The notes under the pieces were generated by a model. It was not told the origin of the DNA and did not search any database. It saw nothing but the letters and a program-made list of their open reading frames with translations. From NCBI GenBank assembly GCA_023246655.1, contig JAHFHX010000001.1:28648-92647 (forward strand): a stretch of 64,000 bases of DNA, written 5' to 3'. A program made the position numbers and the translations under genes. Source of the stretch: Candidatus Magasanikiibacteriota bacterium. GTDB taxonomy: Bacteria; Patescibacteriota; Patescibacteriia; Magasanikbacterales; GWA2-37-8. This document shows positions 1 to 48,540 of the stretch, piece after piece (the stretch's first letter is position 1; each line of letters opens with the position of its first letter).

Positions 1-94
1 ATAAAGAGGAGGTATTCGCGAACGGGGTTTTTTGTTTGACGACTATTTAGGGAAAGCATATACTAGTAGTACTTTTGTTAAGTTTACCATTGAT

Positions 95-1543
95 ATGCCT
101 TTGTCTGATCTTGGTCTTATTGGCCTTGCAGTGATGGGTTCTAATTTGGCTCGCAATTTTGCGAGTCGTGGGTTTACTGTTTCTGTTTATAACCGCAGCC
201 CTGAACGTACCAATGAGTTTATTAAAGAGTTTGGTAATGAAAAATTAGTGGGCACATTTGATTATGTTCAATTTGTCCGCTCACTCAAACGTCCGCGCAA
301 GATTATGGTAATGGTAAAAGCTGGCGCGGCCGTCGATGGCGTTATCGCCGATCTTTTACCGTATCTCCAAGCCGGCGACATCATCATCGACGGTGGTAAT
401 TCACACTATCGTGATACTCAGCGGCGCTCTAAAGAATTGGTTGCCTCCGCCACAGGCGGAAAAAAAATTCACTTTGTTGGCTGCGGTGTTTCTGGTGGGG
501 AAGAGGGGGCTTTGCATGGCCCCAGCCTTATGCCGGGCGGAAGTAAAGAAGCGTGGCAACAAATTAAAGTGTATTACCAAGCGATTGCGGCCAAAGATTT
601 TTCTGGGCGGCCGTGCATCACCTATGTTGGGGACAATGGCGCTGGGCATTATGTGAAAATGGTGCACAATGGTATTGAGTATGCCGTGATGCAACTTATG
701 GCCGAGGCCTATCAAATGTTGCGCGTGGTGTATAAGCAAACTCCCCAGCAAATTGGCGAATTATTCAAAAAATATAATGCCGGAAAATTAAATTCATTTT
801 TATTTCAAATTGCCGTGCCGGTTTTAACGCGCCAAGATGAATTAAAAAAAGGATTTTTGATTGATGCCATCCTCGACCGTGCTGGCGCTAAAGGCACTGG
901 CCAATGGGCGAGTGTGGACGCCTTGGAGCGGGGGATGAGCATCTCGTCTGTTACCGAAGCAGTATTCGCGCGCTCCACTTCGGCCGCGAAAAATGATCGG
1001 CTAAAACTCTCAAAACTCTATCGAATGCTCCCCACCAAAGGCGGGTCCACCTTGGGTGGAAAAAAATTTCAGACCATTCTGGAAAATGCTTTGTACGCCG
1101 CAATGATTTCGTGTTATGCGCAAGGGTATGAGCTCATCCGTAAAGCTGCAGCAGAGGAAAAATGGGAAGTCAATTTGGCGGAAATATCCCGCATTTGGGA
1201 AGGTGGCTGCATTATTCGCGCTAAACTCCTCAATGTGCTTCATTCCGCCTATCAAAAAGGCAATTCAAAAAATAGTCCGCTCTTGGCCGTGCCCGGCATC
1301 GTCACCTTAATTAAAAAACATCTTCCCGAGCTGCGCGCGCTCGTTTCGTTTGCTGGCACCACCGGCGTTTCCACTCCCAGTTTTTCCACGGCGCTGTTTT
1401 ACGTGCAAGACATGACGACTGAGCGTCTCCCCGCCAACCTCATCCAAGGCCTCCGCGATTTTTTCGGCGCCCACACCTATGAACGTACCGATCGGCCGGG
1501 GAGTTTTCATACGGAGTGGAATCAACGAACAATTAACAATTAA
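95..1543 (+). CDS. gnd: 6-phosphogluconate dehydrogenase (decarboxylating)
   Basis: N-terminal Rossmann motif GLIGLAVMGSNLARNF and length ~480 aa are typical of 6PGDH. Start chosen at ATG 95 (MPLSDLGLIG...). The listed ORF extends to 32 through a non-ATG start. An AAGGAGG-like SD sits at 4-13. Confidence 0.85.
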   Translation: MPLSDLGLIGLAVMGSNLARNFASRGFTVSVYNRSPERTNEFIKEFGNEKLVGTFDYVQFVRSLKRPRKIMVMVKAGAAVDGVIADLLPYLQAGDIIIDGGNSHYRDTQRRSKELVASATGGKKIHFVGCGVSGGEEGALHGPSLMPGGSKEAWQQIKVYYQAIAAKDFSGRPCITYVGDNGAGHYVKMVHNGIEYAVMQLMAEAYQMLRVVYKQTPQQIGELFKKYNAGKLNSFLFQIAVPVLTRQDELKKGFLIDAILDRAGAKGTGQWASVDALERGMSISSVTEAVFARSTSAAKNDRLKLSKLYRMLPTKGGSTLGGKKFQTILENALYAAMISCYAQGYELIRKAAAEEKWEVNLAEISRIWEGGCIIRAKLLNVLHSAYQKGNSKNSPLLAVPGIVTLIKKHLPELRALVSFAGTTGVSTPSFSTALFYVQDMTTERLPANLIQGLRDFFGAHTYERTDRPGSFHTEWNQRTINN

Positions 1544-1580
1544 CAATTCAATTTGTTATTTGTTCATTGTTAATTTTTTT

Positions 1581-2999
1581 ATGTCACCTCTCATCGCCCC
1601 ACAACCATTTCTTCTCACCATCTTTGGCGCTTCGGGCGACCTGGCTAAGCTTAAAATTTTTCCCAATCTCTATCGCTTGGCCGAATTTAAACGGTTGCCA
1701 AAGCAATATTATATTATTGGTTTTTCCCGTACTCCAAAAACCCGCGAAGAATTTCATCGGGATTTTTCTGCGAGTATCAGTGCAGCGGTTGGCAGTGAAC
1801 TTAAAACCGAGGTACTGACGGAACTTTTGAATCATGTCTATTATTTTTCCGGTCAGTATTCAGAGATTCAGAGTTTCCAGGCTTATCGAACGTTTTTTGA
1901 GCATGTGGCCGGTACGAAGAAAATAACGCACCTGGCTTATTTTTCCGTGCCTTCGGCAATTTATAAAGATATTATTAGCAACCTGGCGGCCATTCGCCAA
2001 AACAGCGATGATCTTCGTTTAATTTTGGAAAAGCCGTTTGGGCAAAGCCGCGCTAGCGCGGAAGAGCTCTTTCATTTTGCTTTGCAACATTTTAATGAGC
2101 AGCAATTTTATTTGCTGGATCATTACTTGGGTAAAACTGCTGTCCGTAGCATGCTGCGTCTCCGCGAGTCCAATCGAATTTTGAGTCATATGATGCGTGG
2201 CTACGAAATTGCCAATATCCAAATTTCTGCGTTTGAAAATTTTGGCGTTAAAGAACGGGCTAGTTATTTTGATCAGGTTGGTACAATGAAAGATTTTTTG
2301 CAGTCTCACTTGCTCCAAATGTTGGCGCTGCTTACCATGTCTATCCCTATTGAACAAAATGCGGCCAGTTTGCAGCGGGAACGTTATGCCATGCTTTCAG
2401 CTATTGCCTGTCCGTGTAGCGAACGTAATGTAGTGATGGGCCAGTATGCCAGCTATCTTAAAGAAAATGGCATTCCTAAAAGTTCGCGAACGGAAACCTT
2501 TGCGGCGGTACGTTTGTTGGTGGATCGATTAGATTGGCACGGCGTTCCGATGTATATTCGTACCGGCAAACAACTGAGCAAAAAACATACCTACGCAGTG
2601 GTTGAACTCAAGAAGTTCCCTTTTCAGCGCCCGGGCGAAGCTCCCAACCGTCTTATTTTTGAACTGTATCCGGTGGAGCGTCTTACGATAACGCTGGTTA
2701 ATCGCCTTGGTGAAATTGATAGCTTTCAAGAATTGAGTTTGAGTCAATCCATTGGTTGTAGTATTGAAGAAGGTTGCTTGCCAGAGTACGCGACCCTTAT
2801 GCTTGATGTTTTACGCGGCGAGAAGAAATATTTCCTGAGTTTCCCCGAGATTATTGCCCAGTGGAATGTAGCGGATCAGATCGTGCGTTTAGTTGAGGAA
2901 CAAAAAGTAAAATTAGAAAAATATGCCGATGGCTCCGAAGGTCCAAAGTCCCAGCATGCCCTTCCGGCGATGGATGGTTTTGCCTGGTTTAATCTATAA
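1581..2999 (+). CDS. zwf: glucose-6-phosphate 1-dehydrogenase
   Basis: G6PD NADP-binding motif FGASGDLAKLKIFP near the N-terminus, ~470 aa. ATG at 1581 gives MSPLIAPQPFLLTIFGASGDL. Confidence 0.88.
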   Translation: MSPLIAPQPFLLTIFGASGDLAKLKIFPNLYRLAEFKRLPKQYYIIGFSRTPKTREEFHRDFSASISAAVGSELKTEVLTELLNHVYYFSGQYSEIQSFQAYRTFFEHVAGTKKITHLAYFSVPSAIYKDIISNLAAIRQNSDDLRLILEKPFGQSRASAEELFHFALQHFNEQQFYLLDHYLGKTAVRSMLRLRESNRILSHMMRGYEIANIQISAFENFGVKERASYFDQVGTMKDFLQSHLLQMLALLTMSIPIEQNAASLQRERYAMLSAIACPCSERNVVMGQYASYLKENGIPKSSRTETFAAVRLLVDRLDWHGVPMYIRTGKQLSKKHTYAVVELKKFPFQRPGEAPNRLIFELYPVERLTITLVNRLGEIDSFQELSLSQSIGCSIEEGCLPEYATLMLDVLRGEKKYFLSFPEIIAQWNVADQIVRLVEEQKVKLEKYADGSEGPKSQHALPAMDGFAWFNL

Positions 3000-13742: not shown

Positions 13743-13836
13743 AAAAACATCCCGACTTAGTCGGGATGTTTTTAATTTTTTTCTCCTCGACTCTCCAGAA
13801 TCGTCCATTGCACAACTCTGGAGATTGGTCGAGGAG
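13743..13836. repeat. direct repeat copy A (terminator hairpin plus 55-bp hairpin unit)
   Basis: AAAAACATCCCGACTTAGTCGGGATGTTTTT followed by TTCTCCTCGACTCTCCAGAATCGTCCATTGCACAACTCTGGAGATTGGTCGAGGA. The 55-bp part is identical to the copy at 14672-14726. Confidence 0.85.
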
Positions 13837-14640: not shown

Positions 14641-14726
14641 AAAAACATCCCCATTGAATCGGGATGTTTTTTTCTCCTCGACTCTCCAGAATCGTCCATT
14701 GCACAACTCTGGAGATTGGTCGAGGA
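14641..14726. repeat. direct repeat copy B
   Basis: AAAAACATCCCCATTGAATCGGGATGTTTTTTT plus the same 55-bp unit as copy A. Confidence 0.85.
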
Positions 14727-22974: not shown

Positions 22975-23577
22975 ATGGCCGAAGGACCACCACGAAGGGA
23001 TTCAAAAAAAGGTATTGCAGCCCTTGTCGCTGGGGGAGTTGCTCTTGGCGCTGCTGGGGTTTGGTTGGCCAATGAAGCCCATCAAGAAGTCGCGCAACCG
23101 TCCAGGCAGGTAGCGCCCAGACAACCACGAGAACGAAGAGCACCAGCGCCAGCAGCAACGCCGTCACCAGATTTTAGTATTTTGCCACCTGGTGAACGAG
23201 CAGTGCGCCGAGGTTCTGAAGACGACCCGGATGCATCGGATCGCCCACTGACCGAAGCGGAAGTTTTGGCGGTACTTGCAGAAGGGGACACGGCAGAACA
23301 GGCGGACAAAATTTTTGAGTATCTAAAGCCTCCCAGGATTCATAATTTAGAAAAGATTCAGTATAGCGAAGAAGGACACGTTTTTGAAGTCTATAGCAAT
23401 ACCCAACCAAGCGGCCCGCCGATTGCTCAATTTAAAATTCATGAAGCTTCCGGCGGATCATTATCATTTTTGTACCGGCCAATTGTGAGTGTTGCAGAGG
23501 TAACGCCTGAGGAAAAAGAATGTCATAATTTGGGAGAATTAGAGAGCGCTCTTGTATCAACTATTGTAGGTAGATAA
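22975..23577 (+). CDS. hypothetical protein with GC-rich, Pro/Ala/Arg-rich N-terminal half and AT-rich C-terminal half
   Basis: 200-aa ORF. The N-terminal segment GIAALVAGGVALGAAGVWL is TM-like. No recognisable domain. Confidence 0.45.
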   Translation: MAEGPPRRDSKKGIAALVAGGVALGAAGVWLANEAHQEVAQPSRQVAPRQPRERRAPAPAATPSPDFSILPPGERAVRRGSEDDPDASDRPLTEAEVLAVLAEGDTAEQADKIFEYLKPPRIHNLEKIQYSEEGHVFEVYSNTQPSGPPIAQFKIHEASGGSLSFLYRPIVSVAEVTPEEKECHNLGELESALVSTIVGR

Positions 23578-23624
23578 TTAATAACTTTAGTTATTGTAGT
23601 GGGTTGTTATTTGCTTATTGTTAG

Positions 23625-24038
23625 TTGTTCATTATTACTATGCCAACATCCAAATCTGATCTAGCCAAACTTACCAAACTCGGTAAACCGTCCAAGGCCT
23701 CCCGTACGCTCGAAGTATTCCCGAATCACGCTCCTAAAGGTAGCATGGAAGTGACACTCTACTGTACCGAGTTTACTTGTCGTTGTCCGCTGACTAATCA
23801 ACCGGATTATGCCGAAATTGAAATTGTATATGTGCCCGATAAGTATGTGGTGGAGTCTAAGTCTATGAAATTATATTTGGAAACGTATCGCGAGGAAGGC
23901 GTGTTTCATGAACATTTGGCAATGGATATTGGGAAGGATTTTGTACAGTTTGTAAGGCCAAAAGAAAGTATAGTAAAGGTTCGTTTTAATTCTCGAGGCG
24001 GAATTGCTATAACTGCTGAATGGAAATACAAAAAGTAA
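23625..24038 (+). CDS. queF: NADPH-dependent 7-cyano-7-deazaguanine reductase (type I QueF)
   Basis: EFTCRCPLTNQPDYAEIEIVYVPDKYVVESKSMKLYLETYR matches the QueF Cys and E(S/L)K(S/A)hK(L/Y)(Y/F/W) motifs. Confidence 0.85.
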   Translation: MFIITMPTSKSDLAKLTKLGKPSKASRTLEVFPNHAPKGSMEVTLYCTEFTCRCPLTNQPDYAEIEIVYVPDKYVVESKSMKLYLETYREEGVFHEHLAMDIGKDFVQFVRPKESIVKVRFNSRGGIAITAEWKYKK

Positions 24039-24048
24039 CTAAATTTAT

Positions 24049-24483
24049 ATGAGAAACTTAAAACCCGGAGAGCTTGTCGCTGGCTTGGTAGTAGCCGCTG
24101 GGTTAGGTGGGCTCGCTGGAAAAGAAATGTTTTCTGCAACACAGCAACCAGGTATACATACCGAAGTTCGTAATGGAGATCAGGAAAAGATAATCCAAGG
24201 TTTAGAGAAAAAACTCAAAATGAGTTTTCCAGGCACCACGGTTGTTCATACTAGAGATACGCTGCAGATTCTACCGCCAGGATTGCACGGTGAGGTGTAT
24301 ACGAGCTACGTAATTGAATTAACTATTGATACTCATGGTGGAAAAGTTGAGATTAGCGATAGTAGTCCAGCCTCTGTTGCTGAGGAACAATTAGTTGATG
24401 ATTTTGCTGCTATACAAAGGGTGGTTGCAGAAAGATTAACAAAACTTGATGAGTGGAGGAAATCGTTACAAGCGGTTGATTAG
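24049..24483 (+). CDS. hypothetical protein (144 aa, N-terminal TM segment)
   Basis: ORF only; no recognisable motif. Confidence 0.4.
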   Translation: MRNLKPGELVAGLVVAAGLGGLAGKEMFSATQQPGIHTEVRNGDQEKIIQGLEKKLKMSFPGTTVVHTRDTLQILPPGLHGEVYTSYVIELTIDTHGGKVEISDSSPASVAEEQLVDDFAAIQRVVAERLTKLDEWRKSLQAVD

Positions 24484-24516
24484 CTAACATTAAAAGATTT
24501 TGTTTATGGAGTAATA

Positions 24517-25218
24517 GTGTATAGTATGAGTTGGTTAGAAGGAAAGAAAAAGTATATGTTGGGTTTGGCGGCTGGTTTATCTCTGTGGGGAATAACCAGA
24601 GATGAACCAGAAAAATCGATGCCGAAAGATAAGCCAGTAAAGACTGTTCAGACCAAGCAAGACAACAGCGAAATTCAGCAAGCTTTTTGGCGCCAACGAG
24701 CCGAGGAACTAGCACAGGAACAAGCTGCAGCGCAACTAACAAAAGCAGGAGAACAAATTAGTCCTCGTGTTGATTCCTCGCTAGAAGACGATGAAGAAGC
24801 TGACGAAATTTCACCAGCTGATGTTACCGAGATATTTAAGAGACTCGAGAAAGCTCGGGTTACCAAACAGTTCTTAGAACAAAATGTTCCTGGCCTTAAA
24901 GCTAAAATGTCAGATGACGGCGAAGAATTATTAGTGGCCTTTCCTAATGAAAAAGGAGAAGCTATAGAAACAGATATTCTTTCTTTAGATCTAACTGAAT
25001 CAGAAACAGTTGGAGTGGGGACGTTAACTGATTTTGATGCTTTGGTAAGCGTTCCGGCCAACAATTTAAGAAGACTTGCAGAGGTGGTAAGAAAAAAATT
25101 TATTGTTTTAGCTAAAAATAAAGAATTATTCGAAGGCAAAGACCATGATGATATAGAAGCGCAGAATCAGATTATTAACGTGATAAGAGAACAAGGCCTG
25201 CCGATGAGAGACCAGTGA
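24517..25218 (+). CDS. hypothetical protein (233 aa, acidic, N-terminal TM segment)
   Basis: ORF only. Antisense ORF 24675..25139 is a shadow. Confidence 0.45.
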   Translation: MYSMSWLEGKKKYMLGLAAGLSLWGITRDEPEKSMPKDKPVKTVQTKQDNSEIQQAFWRQRAEELAQEQAAAQLTKAGEQISPRVDSSLEDDEEADEISPADVTEIFKRLEKARVTKQFLEQNVPGLKAKMSDDGEELLVAFPNEKGEAIETDILSLDLTESETVGVGTLTDFDALVSVPANNLRRLAEVVRKKFIVLAKNKELFEGKDHDDIEAQNQIINVIREQGLPMRDQ

Positions 25219-25260
25219 GCAAATTGATTAATTTATTTAATTTTTTTTATTTATAATTTT

Positions 25261-27177
25261 ATGTCCAAGGTTTTAGGTATAGATTTGGGCACCACTAACT
25301 CTTGTGTTGCCATCATTGAAGGTGGTCAACCGAAAGTATTAGAAAATAAAGAAGGCGCGCGCACCACGCCCAGTATTGTCGCGATCTCCAAATCGGGTGA
25401 ACGGCTTGTGGGTCAGCTTGCGAAGCGCCAAGCGGTCACGAACGCGGAAAATACGTTGTATTCTATTAAGCGTTTAATTGGTCGCAAATGGGATGATGCG
25501 GAAGTTCAGCGCGACCTTAAACTCATGCCGTATAAAATCGTCAAAAGCGGCGAAGGCGTGAAAGTTGTTATGCAGGGGAAAGAATATAGCCCTCAAGAAA
25601 TTTCCGCGATGATACTCGGCAAAATAAAAGCGGACGCGGAAGAGCGGTTGGGCGAAAAAATTACCGAAGCTGTCATCACCGTGCCGGCCTACTTTGACGA
25701 CGCGCAACGCCAAGCCACGAAAGATGCCGGTGAAATTGCTGGCCTCAAAGTACTCCGCATTATTAATGAACCAACTGCTGCTGCGCTCGCGTACGGATTT
25801 GATAAGAAGAAGGATGAAAAAATTGTGGTGTACGATTTGGGTGGTGGTACGTTTGATGTCTCGATTCTCGAAGTGAGCGCCGATTCCGTGCAAGTGTTGT
25901 CAACAAATGGCGACACACACCTCGGTGGTGATGATTTTGATCAGATCCTCATCCGCTGGATTATTGATGAATTCAAGCGTAGTGAGGGAATTGATTTAGG
26001 CAAAGATAATTTAGCTCTCCAGCGCATTAAAGAAGCTGCCGAAAAAGCGAAGATTGAATTGTCCACCGCGCAAGATACTGAAATCAATCAGCCCTTCATC
26101 ACCAGCGATGCCAACGGCCCCAAACATTTGGTAATGAAACTCACACGTTCAAAATTGGAAGAACTCGTCGGTGAATTGGTGGAGAAAACCCTCGGCCCCG
26201 TGCGCCAGGCGCTTACGGACGCCAAACTTTCGGCGAGCGACCTTAACGAAGTGGTGATGGTCGGCGGAATGACCCGCATGCCGCTCGTGCTCGCCACGGT
26301 CGAAAAATTTTTCAACAAAAAACCAAACATTAGCGTGAACCCGGATGAAGTGGTCGCAGTTGGTGCAGCCGTGCAAGGTGGCGTGCTCCGTGGCGATGTT
26401 AAGGATGTGCTCCTCCTCGATGTTACTCCGCTTTCCTTTGGTATTGAAACCATGGGTAGCGTAATGACCAAACTTATTGAGAGGAATACCACCATCCCGA
26501 CCTCAAAGTCTCAAGTTTTCTCAACAGCCGCCGATAGTCAGCCGAGCGTGGAAATTCATGTGCTCCAAGGGGAAAGACCTATGGCCGCGGACAACAAAAC
26601 ACTCGGTCGGTTCATTCTCGATGGCATTCCGCCAGCCCCACGCGGCGTGCCGCAAATTGAGGTGAGCTTTGACATTGACGCCAACGGCATTCTCCATGTG
26701 AAGGCCAAAGACAAAGCCACCAACAAAGAACAATCCATCCGTATTGAGTCATCTTCTGGTCTTTCCAAAGAAGAAATTGAGAAGATGAAAAAAGATGCGG
26801 AAATGCACGCTGAGGAAGATAAAAAGAAACAGGAACTTATCGAAGCTCGCAACATTGCTGACACGATGATGTATACTACGGAGAAGATGATGAAAGAAAT
26901 TGAGGAGAAGAAAGTCGCGAGCGTTACCGATGACGAAAAGAAAGCGGTGACTGATAACCTTGCCAAAGTGAAGGAAGTAAAAGATAAAGATGATGTGGAA
27001 GCGATTAAAAAAGCGGCCGATGAGTTGTCCAAAGCCGCGCAAGCGGTGGGGATGAAGATGTATTCTGCTACGCAGAGCGCAGATAAGGGCGCTGATGGCA
27101 ACGCCGCTGATAACGCTGATAAAAAATCTGACGACAAAGGGCCAATTGAAGGGGAAGTGGTTGATGATAAAAAGTAA
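25261..27177 (+). CDS. dnaK: molecular chaperone DnaK (Hsp70)
   Basis: [24 protein letters not shown] and [11 protein letters not shown] Hsp70 signatures, 638 aa. Confidence 0.95.
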
Positions 27178-27254
27178 AATTGCACACGATACAATAGACA
27201 TGGAAAAAGATACAATTTGTATCTTGCTACGTGTATTTTGTATCGTGTTTCTCT

Positions 27255-28358
27255 ATGTCCAAAGATTACTACAAAATTCTCGGTGTTGATAAAAATGCTT
27301 CCACTGATGATATCAAAAAAGCTTTCAAAAAGCTCGCTATGACTCACCACCCTGATCGCCAGGGTGGTAATGAAGCCAAGTTTAAAGAAATCAACGAAGC
27401 CTACCAAGTTTTGGGCGACGCGGAGAAGCGCAAGAAGTTTGATCAGTTTGGTTCGGATTTTGAACAGCAAGGCGGCTTTGGGCAAGGCGCTGGTTGGGAG
27501 GATTTTATGCGCGCGGCGCGCGGCCAGGGTGGCGGCGGAAATTTTTCATTTGATTTCGGTGGCATGGATTTAGGCGATATTTTTGGTGATATGTTCGGCG
27601 GTGGTGGCAGAGGGCGTGGTGGTTCTCGGCAGGCCCGCGGTCGCGATATACAAGTTGATGTGGAACTAGATTTTAAAGAAGCGGCTTTTGGGGTGGAGCG
27701 AGAATTATCACTGCGCAAACAATCCAAATGCGATGTCTGTAGCGGAAGTGGAGCCGAACCAGGAAGTAAAATGGAAAAATGTGGCACCTGTCATGGCCAG
27801 GGCCAAGTCACGCAGGTGCAGCGAACATTTTTGGGTGCCATGCAAACGGTAGCGACGTGTCCAACGTGCCAAGGGCGTGGGGAATCGGCTTCTAAAAAAT
27901 GTAAACACTGCGGCGGTAACGGCGTGATGACAAAATCAACAACGGTGAAAGTAAAACTTCCGGCTGGCATCGACAATGGCCAATCCATCCGTCTTTCCGG
28001 TCACGGTGAAGCCGCGCCGCACGGCGGGCAAAGCGGGGATTTGTATGTTGCCGTCCACATTAAACACTCCAAAATTTTTGAGCGTGATAATTTTGACGTT
28101 TATACCAATGCCGAGATCAGTTTTGTCCAGGCCACACTTGGCGACCATATCTCCGTTGAAACCATTGACGGTGAGTTGAAGGTCGCGGTGCCCGAAGGCA
28201 CAGAGTCTGGTCAGCTCATTCGGCTCCGCGGTAAAGGTGTTCCGCATCTCCAAGGTAGTGGGCGAGGGGATCATTACGTGCGTGTAAAAATTCGGGTGCC
28301 GAAGAAGGTGAGTAAGCAAGCTAAAAAACTTCTTGAAGAATTGAAAAGGGAAATTTAG
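27255..28358 (+). CDS. dnaJ: molecular chaperone DnaJ
   Basis: J-domain KDYYKILGV...HPDR, a G/F-rich linker, and four CxxCxGxG zinc-finger repeats. Confidence 0.93.
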
Positions 28359-28413
28359 CTATTGACAGCATTGTAGTCTAGCGATATAGTAACTACAGAA
28401 GTAAAATTTTTCT

Positions 28414-28728
28414 ATGGAACAAAAAATTAATGAAATCCAACAAACCCTGCATGAAGTTCTCGACGCCGTGAATGATTTGGCGACGAACAATGAGAATAGT
28501 TTCCAAAAATTGGAAACCGACATGACCACAATAAAAGCAACCATGGTAACCAAGGATTATATGGATGTCAAACTGGCTGATCTCAAAGGCGACCTAGTTT
28601 TACTCATGCGCAAAGAAGACACCAAGCTCAAAGCGTTGGTAGATATTTTGCATCAGAAAAAAGTTATTTCCCAAACTGACGCCCAGCATATTTTTGGCAT
28701 GGACCCGTTTCCCCAGGCGGCGTTGTAA
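28414..28728 (+). CDS. hypothetical protein (104 aa, coiled-coil-like)
   Basis: ORF followed by a terminator-like hairpin at ~28765-28790. Confidence 0.4.
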   Translation: MEQKINEIQQTLHEVLDAVNDLATNNENSFQKLETDMTTIKATMVTKDYMDVKLADLKGDLVLLMRKEDTKLKALVDILHQKKVISQTDAQHIFGMDPFPQAAL

Positions 28729-28891
28729 ATTTAAGATTAGCCACAATTTTAGAAAAATCCCTTCCCCACAGGGCTTTTTTATTTTATTCACACCCAAGCC
28801 TTGCAATCAAGAGAGAGAGAGTACTATTGGAATATCACCTCTTAGCTTAATTACTAATTTAAGCCATTTAATTCGTTTAATCATTACAATT

Positions 28892-29437
28892 ATGAAAGAA
28901 GGAACAAAAAAAGGCTTGGTTGCAGCGGGGATTCTTGCCGCTGGTCTTGAAGGGGCGCATGTAAATAGCAAACTTGACGATATAGCACAGGCTGCTGACA
29001 AAACTCACCAGCTTGCTGAGGAAACCCACGATATTGCTGGCGCGCCAGAGGCTGAACAGAGCGATTATCGTTTTTTGCTAGGAGTGCTTCAGCGTATACA
29101 GGACACTGACAATAACGATCATTACTCCCATAAAAAAAGCGTAGACGCCCAGGGGAGTGCGTTTGTAATTTTAGAGTATAAAGATGGCTTAACAGCAACA
29201 TTGGGTCGCATTTCGAAATGGCCGAGCCTATTCTATGGCGCTGACTTTGCAAAAAGGAGTGTGATTCAGAAAGACAACCTGCAGAAATTGACAGCAGGTG
29301 TCGTAAAAGAATTAAGCCATCGGCTTCAAGAAGTACAGGATTCTTGGTTTCCCGGCGGATTTCCCAATCACGCTAAAGATATAGCAGACTTATCGAAATT
29401 AACAGCAAGCGTTGACAGGCAACTCAGTGAAAAATAA
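28892..29437 (+). CDS. hypothetical protein (N-terminal TM segment)
   Basis: ORF starting MKEGTKKGLVAAGILAAGL. The listed ORF 28694 extends upstream through the terminator region. Confidence 0.4.
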   Translation: MKEGTKKGLVAAGILAAGLEGAHVNSKLDDIAQAADKTHQLAEETHDIAGAPEAEQSDYRFLLGVLQRIQDTDNNDHYSHKKSVDAQGSAFVILEYKDGLTATLGRISKWPSLFYGADFAKRSVIQKDNLQKLTAGVVKELSHRLQEVQDSWFPGGFPNHAKDIADLSKLTASVDRQLSEK

Positions 29438-29876
29438 AAATGAAAATTATTTACTACATCACCATATGATGCCTGAAGCCGGCCCAATAAGTGCGGAGCA
29501 AGAAGTCAAAAATTTAGTGTTGGAAAACGAAATTTTTAAAGATATAATTCAGCAAGTTTGTTTTGATTTTGATAATTCATTGACCGAGTTACAACGAGGA
29601 GAAGAATTGCATGAGAAAGGCAATTGGAAAACGCAATCAACCGAAGAATTAAAAATGTTAAAAATGTTATTGACGCGTAACCCGGTGACCAGACGAGAGA
29701 TTGGGATATTATTAAAACGGATAAGCGGCGCCGATGACGTGGTAGCCAGCGAAGCGCGGCAAGAGTTAAAAAAAATAGCGTGGGATACCCTTGAGCGAGG
29801 TAGAAAATCCAATATGTTTAATCGCGCGGGAGTTAGCAATGATGACGTAGACAAGTTTACGGGCAAAACAGCTTAA
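29412..29876 (+). CDS. hypothetical protein
   Basis: ORF only. The start is uncertain (an alternative is MMPEAG at ~29466). Confidence 0.35.
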   Translation: MTGNSVKNKNENYLLHHHMMPEAGPISAEQEVKNLVLENEIFKDIIQQVCFDFDNSLTELQRGEELHEKGNWKTQSTEELKMLKMLLTRNPVTRREIGILLKRISGADDVVASEARQELKKIAWDTLERGRKSNMFNRAGVSNDDVDKFTGKTA

Positions 29877-29962
29877 ATTGCCAAAGCAATTTGAATTCTT
29901 TAATAGGCGCAATCATTATTTCAACCTTGAAAACAGCCTGCCATCTATGGTATGCTGTTTTT

Positions 29963-30471
29963 ATGTCCAAGCGCGAGTTTGAGAAATTTTATAATAACCA
30001 TTTGGACAAAGTTTACCGCTTTGTTTTTTTTCGTTGTAATGGCAATCGTGAGTTGACCGAGGATCTGGTTTCGGAAATTTTTATGAAAGCCCTGGAGCAT
30101 TTTGATAGTTATGATGAGAAGGTGAGTAAAAGCGCTTGGATTATGACGATCACGCGCAATCACCTGGCCAATTATTGGCGTGATAGCAAAAAAACCTCTT
30201 TACTGCCTGAGGACGAAGATCGCGAAGATCAGGAGGGAACCGGTGACGGTTTTGGCTAGCCGCAGCCAAACATATTTTTGAAAAAGAGAAAAGTCAGAGC
30301 GAGGTATATGAACTTTTGGCTAAAATTGAGCCTGCTGAGGCTGAATTAGTAACTTTTCACTATATTTTAGGGTATAGTTATGCAGAAATTGGTGAGTTGA
30401 AGGGGCAAACTGAGGGAGCTGTCAAAGTGGCGGCTCATCGCGCGTTGAAGAAATTAAGGTCGTTATTATAA
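29963..30471 (+). pseudogene. ECF-type sigma-70 factor interrupted by a -1 frameshift between region 2 and region 4
   Basis: Frame A (29963..30259) encodes region 2: LDKVYRFVFFRCNGNRELTEDLVSEIFMKALEHFDSYD...WIMTITRNHLANYWRD. Frame B (30247..30471) encodes region 4: EVYELLAKIEPAEAELVTFHYILGYSYAEIGELKGQTEGAVKVAAHRALKKL. The frames join at the T4 run in GGTTTTGGC (30248-30256), where one extra T would give a single ~169-aa ORF. Confidence 0.7.
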
Positions 30472-30592
30472 TTTTGGATTGTCCCCTCCTTGCGAAGGAG
30501 GGGCGAGGGGTGGTCCAAGTTGCGTCGACACAGAGCGTTGACCCCTCCCTGTCCTCCCCTTCGTAAGGAGAGGACAACGAAAAACAAACAGT

Positions 30593-31531
30593 ATGATTCG
30601 CAATATCAGATACAACTTATGGAAAATGAAATGCTCGCTCAAACCCGGGCGTGCTTTTAATAGAACACTTTGGCGAAAGTTAGATGATGCGTGGTCTGAT
30701 TATCATCATGTACCGCGGACATGGTATCAGCGGCATGTGATGCGTTTGGCCACGGCCGCGGTGAGCGGTTTTGTGGTGTGCGCGAGCGCTGCGACGGGCG
30801 CGTATGCCTACACTAGTCCGGATGTTACTGAGGGCAACATTCTTTATCCAATTAAGCAGACACTCGAGCAGGTTGAAGAGAAAACTAAGCATACGCCCGA
30901 AGCGAAAGCGCAATTTTATTTAAAGCAATTATCACGGCGGGAAGCTGAGAAAAAGACGCTCGAGCACAGGCAAGAGCGCACGGAGCGGCTGGAAGCACAG
31001 ATAAATCAAATTGAGGTCAAGCTCGAAGCAACCGAACATGAACTTACTACCAGCACCCTTGTTAATAATACCGAACTGCGCGAGAAAATGTATAATCGAT
31101 TGGAAAAACGGAAGAATCGTTTAGAAAAACAAAAAAAGAAATTGGACGAGCGGTTATTGAAGTTGAATCTTCAAGCTCATATTCTTGTCACGAGTTCGTC
31201 TACTAACCTTGAACCCGAGTCTGAGAATAAAGAGTCTACCGAAATAGGCGCCTCCTTTAGTGTTTCTGTGGAGAAACGCAGAGATACCTCGAATGCGACT
31301 CGTCGCGCTGAGCGTCTCAAACGATTGGAACAACACCCTGAGCGTTTAGAAGAAGGATCGCAGCAGTTTGATACGGTTTCAGCCTCAACCACTGAAACAA
31401 TTCAAGAAGGTGGTGGTACTGAAGCGTCTCGACCTGGTAAAGATAATTTTAGACAGAGGCTTGAACGGCGACGCGATCAAATAATCCAAAATAAATTGAT
31501 TCACTTGATTCCGCAACCGAGGGGGCGGTAA
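30593..31531 (+). CDS. putative anti-sigma factor-like membrane protein (single TM, long coiled-coil/charged region)
   Basis: It lies immediately downstream of the ECF sigma factor. It has one hydrophobic segment, VMRLATAAVSGFVVCASAATGAYA, followed by a K/E/R-rich helical region. The functional call is by context only. Confidence 0.4.
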   Translation: MIRNIRYNLWKMKCSLKPGRAFNRTLWRKLDDAWSDYHHVPRTWYQRHVMRLATAAVSGFVVCASAATGAYAYTSPDVTEGNILYPIKQTLEQVEEKTKHTPEAKAQFYLKQLSRREAEKKTLEHRQERTERLEAQINQIEVKLEATEHELTTSTLVNNTELREKMYNRLEKRKNRLEKQKKKLDERLLKLNLQAHILVTSSSTNLEPESENKESTEIGASFSVSVEKRRDTSNATRRAERLKRLEQHPERLEEGSQQFDTVSASTTETIQEGGGTEASRPGKDNFRQRLERRRDQIIQNKLIHLIPQPRGR

Positions 31532-31638
31532 CTTTTTTTCTCGTCATGGGTATAGTAATCTGCTTCTGATGCTTCTGTCATAGTCGAGACAGGAGTTGTC
31601 CAGGGCTCATACATAATTAATTATTAATTTTAAAATAT

Positions 31639-32586
31639 ATGAAAAGAATTTTTACCACCGTAACCATCATTGCGCTATCACTTTTTCAAGCTTTACCAGC
31701 TCTAGCCATGGAAGCGTCAAGCACGGTTTCGGTAACTACAACTAATCGTGGTCAGGTCATGAAGGATTTGCGCCATGATATTAATGAGAAGCGTAAAGAA
31801 GTTCGCGACGAATTGAAAGATAAAATGAAAGCGGTGCGGAATGAAATTAAAGACAAGATGAAAGAAGTTCAGGATGAGTTTAGAGGCAAAATGAAAGATG
31901 TTCGTGACGAATTTAAGGAGAAGCGAGATGAAATGAAACACAAACTTATCCGTCGTGAACTCATGCTGCACGGAGAACTTACCGCCATGAGTGGGGTAAC
32001 TGCTCCCGCCACGCTGACGGTTAAAGTGAGTGATGTGCGGCCAGATTTTCATAAACAATGGGAATTGGTCTCCAGCTCAACGTTCCCCGGCAAAGATAAA
32101 ATAGTCACTGTAAAAGTTGATGCGAAAACTAAAGTTGTTCGCCGTTTCAATGGCAAGAGCGGCCTTGATGAATTGACGGTGGGGGACACGATGCAGATTG
32201 TGGGGCGTTTGAACGAAGATGGTAGCGTATCGGCGCGTGTGGTGAAGGATGATTCTATCCAAATGACACATCGCGTGTATCACGGGACGATTGGTTCGCT
32301 GGACGCTACAGCGAAATCATTCAGCCTGACCCTCATGAGTTCATCGTCCGTTGCCTTTATGGTCAAGACTGACAGTAATACCAAATTCATGATCCCGGGT
32401 GTGACCAGTACCTCGTTTGCTAATTTGAAGGTCGGCGACAAGGTATGGATACGCGGTATAGTGAACACACGCACGAAGATTATTGATGCTAATGTAGTGA
32501 AAGTAAAACTTCCAGTGGTAGCCCCTGCTCCAGCCCCGACCCCAACGTCAACTCCAACACCAACTTCAACCGCGTCTTCGACTTAA
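31639..32586 (+). CDS. secreted repeat protein (signal peptide, tandem KDKMKxVRxE repeats, C-terminal PT-rich tail)
   Basis: Signal peptide MKRIFTTVTIIALSLFQALPALA. Repeats EVRDELKDKMKAVRNEIKDKMKEVQDEFRGKMKDVRDEFKEKRDEMK. Tail PAPAPTPTSTPTPTSTASST. Confidence 0.5.
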   Translation: MKRIFTTVTIIALSLFQALPALAMEASSTVSVTTTNRGQVMKDLRHDINEKRKEVRDELKDKMKAVRNEIKDKMKEVQDEFRGKMKDVRDEFKEKRDEMKHKLIRRELMLHGELTAMSGVTAPATLTVKVSDVRPDFHKQWELVSSSTFPGKDKIVTVKVDAKTKVVRRFNGKSGLDELTVGDTMQIVGRLNEDGSVSARVVKDDSIQMTHRVYHGTIGSLDATAKSFSLTLMSSSSVAFMVKTDSNTKFMIPGVTSTSFANLKVGDKVWIRGIVNTRTKIIDANVVKVKLPVVAPAPAPTPTSTPTPTSTASST

Positions 32587-32613
32587 ATAATCAGTAGAAA
32601 AAAACATCCCGAC

Positions 32614-33024
32614 TTAGTCGGGATGTTTTTGATTATCTAAAATTTTATTCACCTCCGCATCCGCCTCTTTGTTCCCGGCACGCATGGTGTGGCGATACGT
32701 TACTTTTTTAAATTGCGTGGCAGTGTTGTAGACCTGCATAAATAATTTTTGGAGTGTTGGCTCTTTCACTTTGTACTCTCCTCGCATTTGTTTTACGATC
32801 AGTTCGCTATCGAGTACGCAGTGAACTTCGGTCGCACCAAGCTCTTTAGCTTTTTTGAGAGCAGAAATAAGGGCCGAGTACTCAGCAAAGTTATTAGTTT
32901 GGTGCCCCAAATATTCGCCATAGTGCGCCAGCACAACGCCCGCCTCATTTTTGATAACAATGCCAGCGGCAGCTGGCCCCGGGTTGCCACGCGCTCCGCC
33001 ATCGGTGTGGGTGATTAATTTCAT
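32614..33024 (-). CDS. rnhA: ribonuclease HI
   Basis: THTDGGARGNPGPAAAGIVIK and the catalytic E/D/D/H pattern (EYSALISAL, HCVLDSELIVKQ, GNKEADAEVNKIL), ~136 aa. Confidence 0.88.
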   Translation of the reverse strand: MKLITHTDGGARGNPGPAAAGIVIKNEAGVVLAHYGEYLGHQTNNFAEYSALISALKKAKELGATEVHCVLDSELIVKQMRGEYKVKEPTLQKLFMQVYNTATQFKKVTYRHTMRAGNKEADAEVNKILDNQKHPD

Positions 33025-33131
33025 AACACAGATTACGCAGATTAATAAATTGGATTACGCAGATTAGTGATAGTGATTACAGAGATTTCCAAATCCGTGT
33101 AATCCTCACCGTTAATCCGCGTAATCGGTGT
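33025..33131. promoter_or_regulatory. cluster of five GATTACRCRG / TGYRTAATC repeats upstream of rnhA
   Basis: Read on the minus strand, the copy proximal to rnhA is TAATCTGCGTAATCTGTGTTATG with ATG as the start codon. This matches the motifs at 47891-47928 and 56952-56990. Confidence 0.6.
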
Positions 33132-34472
33132 TTAATATGGTAGTTTCCAAAGTCCCTGGTTATCTACAAAGTAGAGTATACGCCTCGATGTATCTACGGT
33201 AAAGGCAGAAATTGATTGTGGGGCCAGTTCTTGTTCAATATTATAGCTAGAAAAAAGAATAGCAAGTTTATTGCCTCGGAGGAGTGCTAGAGTAGCTTCA
33301 TCGAGTGGTAACACCTGGGCAAGAGTATCACTAAAACGGTTAATTAGATATGGTTCACCTTCTTCCGGAAAGTCCCAAAGTTCCCACGGTGTCCAGATGA
33401 TCCACTCACCTGATTTTAATGAACGAACAAATTGTCCCTGGCTGAATTGTCGGTATTTATTTGGAGTCACCAGAAGCAATTCGTTAGAATGCAATTGTTT
33501 AAGCCACACAACGGCTTTATGAGCGGCTGCTATTCTCCATCCAGACGTAGTTGCGTTGGTTGGTAGTGTGATAGTGGTCCAGGGAGTCATAAAACCAAGT
33601 ACATCTTTGATAATCCGGAGTTGCCCAGTGGTGGTACTGTTTTCAAGAGCCCACAATTCTCCGTCATCTATATGCCAATCCATAAAGGTATGGGTGGCAA
33701 CAGGAAGCTGGTGTTGAAGGCGTGGGAAGAGTACGTTAAGGGTTGTGCTGGTATTATAATAGAGTTCTGGTTCAGTAGTATTTCGCCACTCAAAAGAGAT
33801 AATCGGTGCTGAAGTTGTTGATTGTATATCAAATTGATGTTCTATATTTTCACTATCAATTACCACCAGTGTTGGTGAAGAGTTTGAATTATCTGTGAGG
33901 GCCAAGAAATTCGTGCGAGGTGCCCAGATCAAACGAACTGGTTTTAAGGAAGCGATGCTCCGAATGTGGAGAAAGATTTTCTTTTGAGTATTATATAGCC
34001 AGAGTTCAGTGCTACTCGCTGAAGAGGCTTTAGTATAGGCCAGATATTGACCATCAGTTGAAAGAGCAATTTTAGGGATCGTGCCTGTAGCTATTTGTTC
34101 AGGTGATGCCTTTTTTAGTAAATGAATATTATTAATATAGGTAGTTTGTTCATTCGTAACTACAATTTGTTTTTCCCAATCATAATAATTGGGGGCGCTG
34201 ATACGCAATCGGTATGTCTGGGGCTTAATGTTTGTTAAGCGAATCGGTATATCTTTATGGATAAGCAGATCATTCAAGTACACCACAGCATTTTTAGGAA
34301 GTATATCAATATTAACGCTCCCCGTTGCCTTGAGTAGACCGTTTTTTATGTCGTAGCGAAATCCAGCAGTATAGAGGAGTACAGCTGGTACCAGTACACA
34401 AAATAAGAAGATAAAAATACCCAGTACGAATAATCGCCAGGGACGGGTAAACACAGCGCCAGGATACTCCAT
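33132..34472 (-). CDS. hypothetical membrane-anchored protein (446 aa)
   Basis: N-terminal TM segment WRLFVLGIFIFLFCVLVPAVLLY followed by a large extracytoplasmic domain. No recognisable motif. Confidence 0.5.
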   Translation of the reverse strand: MEYPGAVFTRPWRLFVLGIFIFLFCVLVPAVLLYTAGFRYDIKNGLLKATGSVNIDILPKNAVVYLNDLLIHKDIPIRLTNIKPQTYRLRISAPNYYDWEKQIVVTNEQTTYINNIHLLKKASPEQIATGTIPKIALSTDGQYLAYTKASSASSTELWLYNTQKKIFLHIRSIASLKPVRLIWAPRTNFLALTDNSNSSPTLVVIDSENIEHQFDIQSTTSAPIISFEWRNTTEPELYYNTSTTLNVLFPRLQHQLPVATHTFMDWHIDDGELWALENSTTTGQLRIIKDVLGFMTPWTTITLPTNATTSGWRIAAAHKAVVWLKQLHSNELLLVTPNKYRQFSQGQFVRSLKSGEWIIWTPWELWDFPEEGEPYLINRFSDTLAQVLPLDEATLALLRGNKLAILFSSYNIEQELAPQSISAFTVDTSRRILYFVDNQGLWKLPY

Positions 34473-47060: not shown

Positions 47061-47897
47061 TTGAATAATTTTACAATGTCCTTCAGCTACGAACAATCTA
47101 TTTGGGGAAAAGGGAAAGCGAGTTTACAGTGGTCGAGTCCCACCAGTTTTCGTCTCCGGCAGGCTTGTGAGGCGATCGCTTCGCTTAAAGCGGGAGCAAA
47201 AGTTTTAGAAATTGGCTGTGGAGCCGGGCAGTTTATTCGAGCTATACAAAAAATTCATCCGGAATTTGAATGTTATGGTGTTGATATCAGTCGGCAGGCA
47301 ATTGAGTTTGCCAAGACAAACAATGATGGGGTGACGTATGCTCTTAATGAGCCGTACCAATTCTCCTATGAGGACGCCACGTTTGATGCAGTTCTTATTT
47401 TTGATGTTTTAGAACATGTTGCTGATCCCGGTAAGCTCCTCACTGAAGTGCGGCGCGTGCTTAAAAATAACGGCATTTTGTATGCCTTTGTTCCTTGTGA
47501 GGGCGATTGGTTGTCGCTGTGGCAGATGCTTGACACAGTACATCTGAAAAGAGACCTTACTCAAAAGTACGCCGGTCATATTCAGTTTTTTTCCAGAAAA
47601 CAACTACAAAATTTATTTATTCAAAAAAAATTTGAAATTAGTAAATTACGTTATAGCGAACACCTTCTCGGGCAATTCCTGGGTGTGGTTGTATTTAGTT
47701 TGATGGATCGTGCTGCTCATCAGCAGGGAATTAAACAGCTCAATAACGAAACTTATTTTGAAAAACAATCACCACGTCGCTTCGTAAAAGTAATCAAAAA
47801 TATTGTGAATAGTCTCGTATATCTGGAATCTACGTTGTTCTCGCGTCTGCCATCACCAAATGTACATCTGGTGGCGAGGAAGTCAGCATCCACATAA
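47061..47897 (+). CDS. class I SAM-dependent methyltransferase
   Basis: Motif I VLEIGCGAGQF and motif II/post-I DAVLIFDVLEHVADP. Confidence 0.8.
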   Translation: MNNFTMSFSYEQSIWGKGKASLQWSSPTSFRLRQACEAIASLKAGAKVLEIGCGAGQFIRAIQKIHPEFECYGVDISRQAIEFAKTNNDGVTYALNEPYQFSYEDATFDAVLIFDVLEHVADPGKLLTEVRRVLKNNGILYAFVPCEGDWLSLWQMLDTVHLKRDLTQKYAGHIQFFSRKQLQNLFIQKKFEISKLRYSEHLLGQFLGVVVFSLMDRAAHQQGIKQLNNETYFEKQSPRRFVKVIKNIVNSLVYLESTLFSRLPSPNVHLVARKSAST

Positions 47898-47925
47898 TCC
47901 TCACAAAATCTGCATAATCTGTGTT

Positions 47926-48540
47926 ATGAAAGTCATTCATATTATTCCCTCAGCCTTTAGTTATTTTGATGATATTCGTTCCAATGCGTTTTATGTGGTA
48001 GATAATCTCAGCAAGATTGGGGTAGAAACAGAGGCTATTACTATTGAGTTTGGGATGACGGTACCCACTGCTGTTCGTGAAGCGATTGGGGAAGAAGCAC
48101 CTTCCCAAAAATATCAGGGACTGGCTCCCATGTCTCAGGTTATGGCATCGCTCGATCAGTTTGATATTATTCACGTCCATTGTCCGCTGTTTGGTGCCGC
48201 GGGAAAAATTCTTAGTTGGAAGCGCCAGCATCCTAACCGCTGTTTAGTAGTAACCTACTATCGCCGGGTAATGATACCAGATTTTTTTAGCTTACTCATC
48301 GTTGCCTATAATTTTTATTATCTACCACGTTTGCTGGCCGCGGCGGAAGTAGTAATAACCCCGGCATTACGTAGTATGCCTTGGAGCTTACAACGCCGGA
48401 ATCAACGGATAATTGAAATTGATGAATCTCCTAGTTTTAACGGCGTTGATGTGACAGTTAACCCGGATGGAGAAGTGTTATCTCCCGGAGAGCAGCTTGC
48501 CATGAAATATGCCATGGTGTATACTACTATCGTTAATTAA
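47926..48540 (+). CDS. hypothetical protein resembling the N-terminal domain of GT4 glycosyltransferases
   Basis: MKVIHIIPSAFSYFDD...FDIIHVHCPLFGAAG is GT4-N-like. The start codon is embedded in the conserved TAATCTGTGTTATG motif. Confidence 0.5.
   Translation: MKVIHIIPSAFSYFDDIRSNAFYVVDNLSKIGVETEAITIEFGMTVPTAVREAIGEEAPSQKYQGLAPMSQVMASLDQFDIIHVHCPLFGAAGKILSWKRQHPNRCLVVTYYRRVMIPDFFSLLIVAYNFYYLPRLLAAAEVVITPALRSMPWSLQRRNQRIIEIDESPSFNGVDVTVNPDGEVLSPGEQLAMKYAMVYTTIVN

Follow-up and report, generated by a model that had tools for sequence, protein, structure and literature searches.

Is the sigma factor gene at 29963..30471 simply broken by a missing base, or does its division between two reading frames act as a switch, a recoding site or a source of two cooperating subunits? 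The gene lies in the window, which is the whole 64-kb stretch of DNA analysed here. An independently assembled contig, L001, covers the same site and serves for comparison below. The pieces of the gene are:

29963..30259, plus strand: frame-0 piece of the ECF sigma gene, with region 2 (Sigma70_r2) and the linker, 98 aa, closed by a premature TAG
30247..30471, plus strand: -1-frame piece, with the end of the linker (FWL motif, W98/L99) and region 4 (the -35-binding helix-turn-helix, Sigma70_r4_2), 74 codons, TAA at 30469-30471
30250..30253, plus strand: T4 run with a deficit of one base, from the DNA of the window, L001 and relatives; T5 in L001 (GGT TTT TGG, that is, G F W)

Organization of the sigma factor gene

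The frame-0 ORF starts at ATG 29963 and ends after 98 aa at TAG 30257-30259, and the -1 frame is open from 30247, right behind a TGA at 30244-30246, to TAA 30469-30471. The two frames overlap only within 30247..30256 (CGGTTTTGGC), so a single indel must be located inside that stretch. In Pfam, the frame-0 piece matches Sigma70_r2 (PF04542) over residues 9-77 (E 8.6e-15), and the -1-frame piece matches Sigma70_r4_2 (PF08281; E 9.9e-14). With one T more in the T4 run at 30250-30253, the gene becomes a single ORF of 510 nt that encodes 169 aa. The first-pass annotation had claimed both that sigma regions 2 and 4 lie in different frames and that one added T restores a single 169-aa protein. The ORFs and domains bear out the first claim, and the second is confirmed by the existence of exactly this 169-aa protein in another assembly (P0001). 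Against the TIGR02937 sigma70-ECF model the repaired protein scores 89.6 bits (cut-off 42.9 bits) over positions 2-164 of 165, far beyond chance, and it has the small two-domain form of ECF factors, in which regions 1.1 and 3 are lacking. For a Magasanikbacteria-like Patescibacteria genome, this is an unremarkable sigma-70 family gene of the ECF type (group IV).

Comparison with a near-identical assembly and with relatives

P0001 is encoded by L001 (ENA ERZ27276474, contig k141_106886, 9,823 bp) and matches the repaired protein with 100% identity and 100% coverage. Positions 180..9823 of L001 align with 23611..33253 of the window at 99.93% identity, with six SNPs and one gap, and this sole gap of the 9.6-kb alignment lies at 30250-30253, where L001 has T5 and the window has T4. 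The site itself is covered by this one independent contig. Look-ups with the flanking genes and with the two partial products (98 aa and, from the C-terminal ORF, 51 aa) found no further T4-bearing contig on record and only L001 spanning the site, and an exact-pattern scan for the site with 3-7 bases in the run gave 0 matches in species-representative genomes and 0 in JGI metagenomes.

A total of 285 homologues of the repaired protein were found, and the named relatives appear as 'RNA polymerase sigma factor' of Candidatus Magasanikbacteria and Patescibacteria MAGs. The 120 listed are all single chains of 155-205 aa containing regions 2 and 4, except P0065, which is the identical 98-aa fragment; it is recorded only from one NCBI contig (159,913 bp), presumably the window's own source record. 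The first-pass annotation had also proposed a comparison with orthologous sigma genes, and this gives a uniform picture: a single uninterrupted frame with both domains, which is broken at 30250-30259 in the window, is present in L001 and in all 13 of the related genome loci that hold both halves. The repaired junction restores W98 and L99 of the D-x-F-W-L motif, two residues that hardly vary in an alignment of 25 relatives. The DNA of the relatives at this site reads GCA TTT TGG (T4, in frame), AGT TTT TGG (T5), GCT TGG (no run) and so on. The length of the T run thus tracks codon choice, and the run is a by-product and not a conserved signal. Since a 99.93%-identical assembly carries the gene intact, the break points to an ordinary sequencing error or a strain-level mutation, and not to a programmed switch.

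The same comparison bears on a functional two-piece sigma factor, in which the 98-aa chain with region 2 would join, on RNA polymerase, a 51-aa chain with region 4 that has its own start at TTG 30316. Two-subunit sigma factors exist, as in SigO-RsoA of Bacillus subtilis; here both domains are still open reading frames, and a GAGG stands 10 nt ahead of TTG 30316. However, no relative is split, either among the 13 related loci or, bar P0065, among the 120 listed of the 285 homologues, the near-identical strain (L001) has the fused gene, and the 51-aa product is on record in no assembly. The split also costs both products some 20 residues and the FWL motif, which hardly varies. The GAGG is probably nothing but codons of a conserved E-V-Y, because the organism makes no use of Shine-Dalgarno (SD) sequences (see below). 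Taken together, these points make a two-piece sigma factor hardly credible.

Homopolymer runs and the origin of the missing base

Further independent contigs of the same organism (L019-L022 and L144) extend the comparison, together with L001, to six contigs from two ENA samples and 26,361 window bases. Over these bases there are 15 SNPs and one indel, which is the T run of the sigma gene. All 564 of the other homopolymer runs of at least 4 nt agree, including 34 of at least 7 nt, and within the sigma gene a T8 at 30024 and an A7 at 30188 agree among the compared assemblies. The concordance of 564 other runs gives no sign of systematic homopolymer error, and with no second run in disagreement a genuine variant is conceivable as well. 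Other split genes were considered as a mark of an error-prone assembly, but each of the five suspicious pairs of adjacent same-strand ORFs elsewhere in the window consists of unrelated neighbours.

These runs also bear on slip-strand phase variation, which the first-pass annotation had suggested and in which a reversible, high-rate change in the length of the T run would toggle the sigma module. In its favour, T4 and T5 both exist in near-identical genomes, and the site is 220 nt from a pair of triplex motifs (see below) of a kind tied to local genomic instability by Holder et al. 2015. However, homopolymers below about 7-8 nt mutate too slowly for contingency loci, and a tract of 4 or 5 nt is far below this length, while the longer T8 and A7 of the same gene and the 34 runs of at least 7 nt in the compared 26 kb are invariant. 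A conserved tract at this position is absent in the relatives, where the run follows codon choice. On balance, the suggestion of a phase-variable switch does not hold up, and we consider it very unlikely.

The single-base deletion is, with a probability of about 90%, an error of the consensus or else a null allele of very recent origin at the strain level, carried by a strain or by part of the population. Between a consensus error and a real mutation the odds are roughly even. Four explanations had been put forward in the first-pass annotation; sequencing or assembly error and recent pseudogenisation survive, but a phase-variable switch and a programmed frameshift fail on the T5 of L001 and the 13 in-frame loci. 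Programmed frameshifting, phase variation and a two-piece sigma factor jointly account for a few per cent.

The SNPs between the window and the compared contigs are clustered. Five of the six in L001 fall within 250 bp (window 28944-29194), in the hypothetical gene of ORF 28694..29437, and five of the seven in L020 fall within 140 bp (window 23151-23290), in the hypothetical gene of ORF 22975..23577. One of them, C29150T, creates a TAG stop in L001, so that L001 has a broken neighbour gene whereas the window has a broken sigma gene. In addition, L020 ends at 23594 and L001 matches the window only from 23611 on; positions 1-179 of L001 differ from the window upstream of 23611 and have no match elsewhere in it. 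This discontinuity at 23594-23611 is a strain-level rearrangement or an assembly break.

Promoter, translation initiation and recoding

One candidate promoter was found ahead of the gene:

29927..29956, plus strand: sigma-70-type promoter-like site, TTGAAA, 18-nt spacer and TG-extended TATGCT, from a consensus scan (9 of 12 matches)

This site ends 6 nt ahead of the sigma ATG and probably functions as a promoter. In the window (29951-29956) and in four relatives (L003, L004, L005 and L007), the sigma ATG is preceded at a distance of 6-9 nt by a -10-like box, TATGCT or TATACT. Such a short distance suggests a leaderless sigma mRNA, which would be transcribed from a housekeeping-type promoter and not from an autoregulated one of ECF type. 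Over the whole window, SD-like motifs stand upstream of 2 of the 42 genes, as against 9.8% of random 17-mers, and the regions upstream of gene starts are A+T-rich. Translation initiation in the source organism seems to be SD-independent. Because SD motifs are nearly absent, SD-stimulated slippage and re-initiation at TTG 30316 behind the GAGG are both unlikely.

A programmed -1 ribosomal frameshift on U UUU (30250-53) would yield full-length sigma factor at a regulated low level, with the 98-aa chain as a second isoform. The local sequence has some of the expected elements: after a slip by one base from UUU 30251-53 to 30250-52, tRNA-Phe would regain full pairing; some 12 nt ahead of the T run stands an SD-like AGGAGG (30232-30237); and an in-frame stop closes the reading frame two codons past the run. 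The re-pairing of tRNA-Phe and the upstream AGGAGG make some low-level -1 slippage on the T4 allele physically possible. The 0-frame reading C GGT TTT GGC TAG, however, contains no X XXY YYZ heptamer, and only the Phe tRNA can re-pair. The 87 nt downstream (30254-30340) fold at -17.4 kcal/mol with z = 0.00 against shuffles, which gives no sign of a stimulatory structure 5-9 nt beyond the site. The only local hairpin (30251-30270) overlaps the T run itself. The AGGAGG encodes Q-E-G, neither it nor the T run is conserved in the relatives, and SD sequences are hardly used (2 of 42 genes). Recoding is moreover unneeded in L001, a genome differing by 0.07% that makes the protein from one frame, and the 13 in-frame loci and the unsplit full-length homologues among the 120 listed argue in the same direction. 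The earlier suggestion of a programmed frameshift is thus contradicted by the lack of a slippery heptamer and of downstream structure as well as by the in-frame genes, and we judge it highly improbable. A one-base deletion, by error or by recent mutation, remains the preferred reading.

The public gene call for L001 (1095-3746) fuses a 233-aa upstream ORF to dnaK via two TGA codons (883 aa). Recoding of TGA was considered and rejected, as the window has a normal intergenic gap (25216-25227) and a normal DnaK start. The fusion is therefore an artefact of a gene model that reads TGA as sense; code 11 applies, and the sigma gene is not rescued by recoding.

Consequences of the T4 allele and the downstream module

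The loss of one T from the T5 run (GGT TTT TGG, G-F-W) would shift the frame, and translation of the T4 allele would stop at the TAG two codons on. The resulting 98-aa product would keep region 2 (core binding and -10 recognition) and an acidic linker. It would have neither the FWL linker motif nor region 4 (-35 recognition) and would be non-functional as a sigma factor, since with region 4 lost the truncated product should not recognise the -35 element. The truncation therefore most probably amounts to a loss of function.

Two genes follow the sigma gene in the same orientation:

30593..31531, plus strand: partner gene, encoding a protein of 312 aa that has a single predicted membrane helix and weakly matches DUF5667 (E 4.8e-4, under the Pfam cut-off)
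31639..32586, plus strand: third gene of the module, 315-aa DUF5666 protein (E 1.7e-8) with a signal-peptide-like N-terminus

A DUF5667-like homologue lies directly behind the sigma gene in 12 related loci, and a DUF5666 gene is found downstream also in L002, L003, L004 and L007. The predicted order sigma factor, DUF5667 membrane protein, DUF5666 protein is a conserved one. In Pfam the partner protein gives the sub-threshold DUF5667 match and no anti-sigma domain; it is presumed to be the anti-sigma factor or another partner of the module, the anti-sigma function being assigned from position only.

A more elaborate scenario can be drawn from these data. The T4 allele could be real and mark a sub-population in which this widely conserved sigma / DUF5667 / DUF5666 module is off; the deletion might have been favoured by replication trouble at the adjacent triplex-motif pair, and traces of full-length sigma factor might still arise by -1 tRNA-Phe slippage on U UUU. 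If true, a minimal genome would show natural heterogeneity, on or off, in one of its few sigma factors, and as a whole we rate this scenario as improbable. With respect to the simpler reading, a one-base deletion by consensus error or recent mutation, the proper annotation is that of an ECF sigma factor gene with a frameshift, or of a 169-aa protein if reads show T5, and not that of two genes or of recoding. A real deletion would make the strain a small natural knockout, devoid of a sigma factor that is conserved across many Patescibacteria. The importance beyond annotation is small, as the feature is a one-base deletion in a conserved and already annotated type of gene.

A pair of triplex motifs behind the sigma gene

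In the relatives, the sigma stop codon and the start of the partner gene are no more than a few bases apart. The window and L001 have an insertion of 121 nt (30472-30592) between the two genes; it is absent from the relatives and is lineage-specific. Two GC-rich hairpins had been noted after the gene in the first-pass annotation. They are present, with perfect arms of 9 bp in hairpin 1 (30483-30491/30495-30503) and arms of 12 nt at 92% in hairpin 2 (30550-30561/30565-30576), but they read as paired motifs of BoxC/PIT triplex type rather than as simple hairpins. Both are parts of one composite palindrome, an inverted repeat at 30472-30584 with 47-nt arms, which folds at -58.9 kcal/mol (z = -5.8). 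Its two units are:

30483..30514, plus strand: unit 1, pyrimidine arm CCCCTCCTT, loop GCG, purine arm AAGGAGGGG, linker CGA and third strand GGGGTGGT (mirror image); layout as in Holder et al. 2015 (PMC4666352)
30541..30573, minus strand: unit 2, inverted, CCTCTCCTT, ACG, AAGGGGAGG, ACAG, GGAGGGGT; the stem extends to 30551/30575, and with unit 1 it forms the inverted repeat

BoxC, PIT elements and TM-ECO are names for class II purine-motif intrastrand triplex motifs of E. coli, some copies of which are inverted pairs (Holder et al. 2015, NAR 43:10126, PMC4666352; for BoxC/PIT elements, Hoyne et al. 2000, as cited there). Formation of a triplex has been demonstrated for the E. coli motif alone, in vitro; the motifs are linked to local genomic variability, and neither promoter nor terminator activity had been seen in earlier work (Holder et al. 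2015, PMC4666352). In both units of the window, the third strand is a mirror image of the purine arm, with G facing G and with either A or T facing A; this is the order of a class II motif.

The 22-mer CCCCTCCTTRCGAAGGAGGGGC occurs in at least 120 JGI metagenome contigs and, among the matches listed, is nearly always followed by GGGG[A/T]GGT. Co-variation was counted over 229 hairpins in the JGI contigs listed, with unit 2 of the window entered as TCCTCTCCTT-ACG-AAGGGGAGGA / ACAGGGAGGGGT. Among the matches listed, arm AAGGAGGGG is accompanied by its cognate box GGGG[AT]GG in 110 of 137 hairpins, arm AAGGGGAGG by GG[AT]GGGG in 9 of 25, arm AAGGGGGAG by G[AT]GGGGG in 10 of 16 and arm AAGGGGGGA by [AT]GGGGGG in 7 of 13; non-cognate boxes number 0-4 per arm type, and the third strand co-varies with the purine arm. 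The layout of arm, loop, arm and mirror, combined with this co-variation, assigns the elements to the known kind of triplex motif. Judged by their sequence, the hairpins are an inverted pair of putative class II triplex motifs of BoxC/PIT type, a known kind of element in a new host group and in a new sequence variant. Motifs of this type have been studied mainly in enterobacteria and cyanobacteria, and they are also found in genomes of the candidate phyla radiation. A causal link from the motifs to the deletion 220 nt upstream is speculation only.

No copy of the repeat was found elsewhere in the 64-kb window, which holds a single pair. Rfam returned nothing at gathering score and, below it, only generic hairpin (miRNA-precursor) noise, and a literature search by sequence string gave only irrelevant primer matches. 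Nor are the hairpins intrinsic terminators; the terminator scan did not list them, as a T tract is missing behind them.

Other copies of the motif were seen in unrelated contexts. Its core CCCCCTCCTTACGAAGGAGGGGCTGGGGGAGGT lies inside the LepA coding sequence of a Candidatus Uhrbacteria MAG (L010, 667-688, in ORF 16..1656), where the copy falls in a variable loop that reads ...TPLLTKEGLGEVV...; this would be an in-frame occurrence of the triplex motif within a conserved gene. Head-to-tail tandem arrays of the triplex unit are present in two metagenome contigs, L030 (8432-8532, period of about 40 nt) and L105 (about 62 nt). The similar spacers of these arrays indicate a tandem repeat and not a CRISPR array.

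Other features of the window

Secondary BLAST matches revealed a 60-nt direct repeat at 13776-13835 and 14667-14726, 98-100% identical and about 890 nt apart. The 226-aa ORF at 47860-48540 has a weak match only to the N-terminal half of a family-4 glycosyltransferase, and the ORF that follows is weakly thioredoxin-like and is not the missing C-terminal half. This locus may be a truncated or degenerate glycosyltransferase gene.

Comparison with known systems

As in the ECF (group IV) sigma-70 family, the repaired gene product has two domains and about 169 aa and matches TIGR02937 over its whole length, and the next gene downstream codes for a membrane protein. The gene differs in that a one-base deletion interrupts it in this assembly, and its partner is of DUF5667 type and not a recognised anti-sigma domain.

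In -1 frameshifting of the dnaX type, an A AAA AAG heptamer is combined with an upstream SD-like element and a downstream hairpin. The window has in common with it a homopolymeric site and an SD-like AGGAGG about 12 nt upstream. In contrast to dnaX, the site has no X XXY YYZ heptamer, downstream structure or conservation, and it lies in an organism with SD-independent initiation.

A likeness in kind of mutation is offered by the mucA22 allele of Pseudomonas aeruginosa, in which one G is lost from a G5 run of the anti-sigma gene mucA. What the two share is the natural loss of one base from a homopolymer of 5 nt, by which one partner of an ECF sigma/anti-sigma module is put out of action, and mucA22 illustrates that short runs can be ordinary mutational hot spots. 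The two differ in that mucA22 hits the anti-sigma gene, is selected in chronic infection and is documented in isolates, whereas here the sigma gene is hit, in a single assembly.

The element behind the sigma gene shares with the BoxC/PIT motifs of E. coli a C-rich arm, a 3-nt loop, a G-rich arm, a 3-4-nt loop and a mirroring second G-rich arm, as well as, with some copies, the arrangement as an inverted pair. Its lineage-specific occurrence is in line with the variability reported around such motifs. The sequences differ, with CCCCTCCTT-rCG-AAGGAGGGG-n3-GGGG[A/T]GGT in the window as against CCCTCNCCC-N3-6-GGGNGAGGG-N3-GGGNGAGGG in E. coli. The host differs as well, being a Patescibacteria genome, and the 22-mer variant is very widespread, with at least 120 environmental metagenome contigs.
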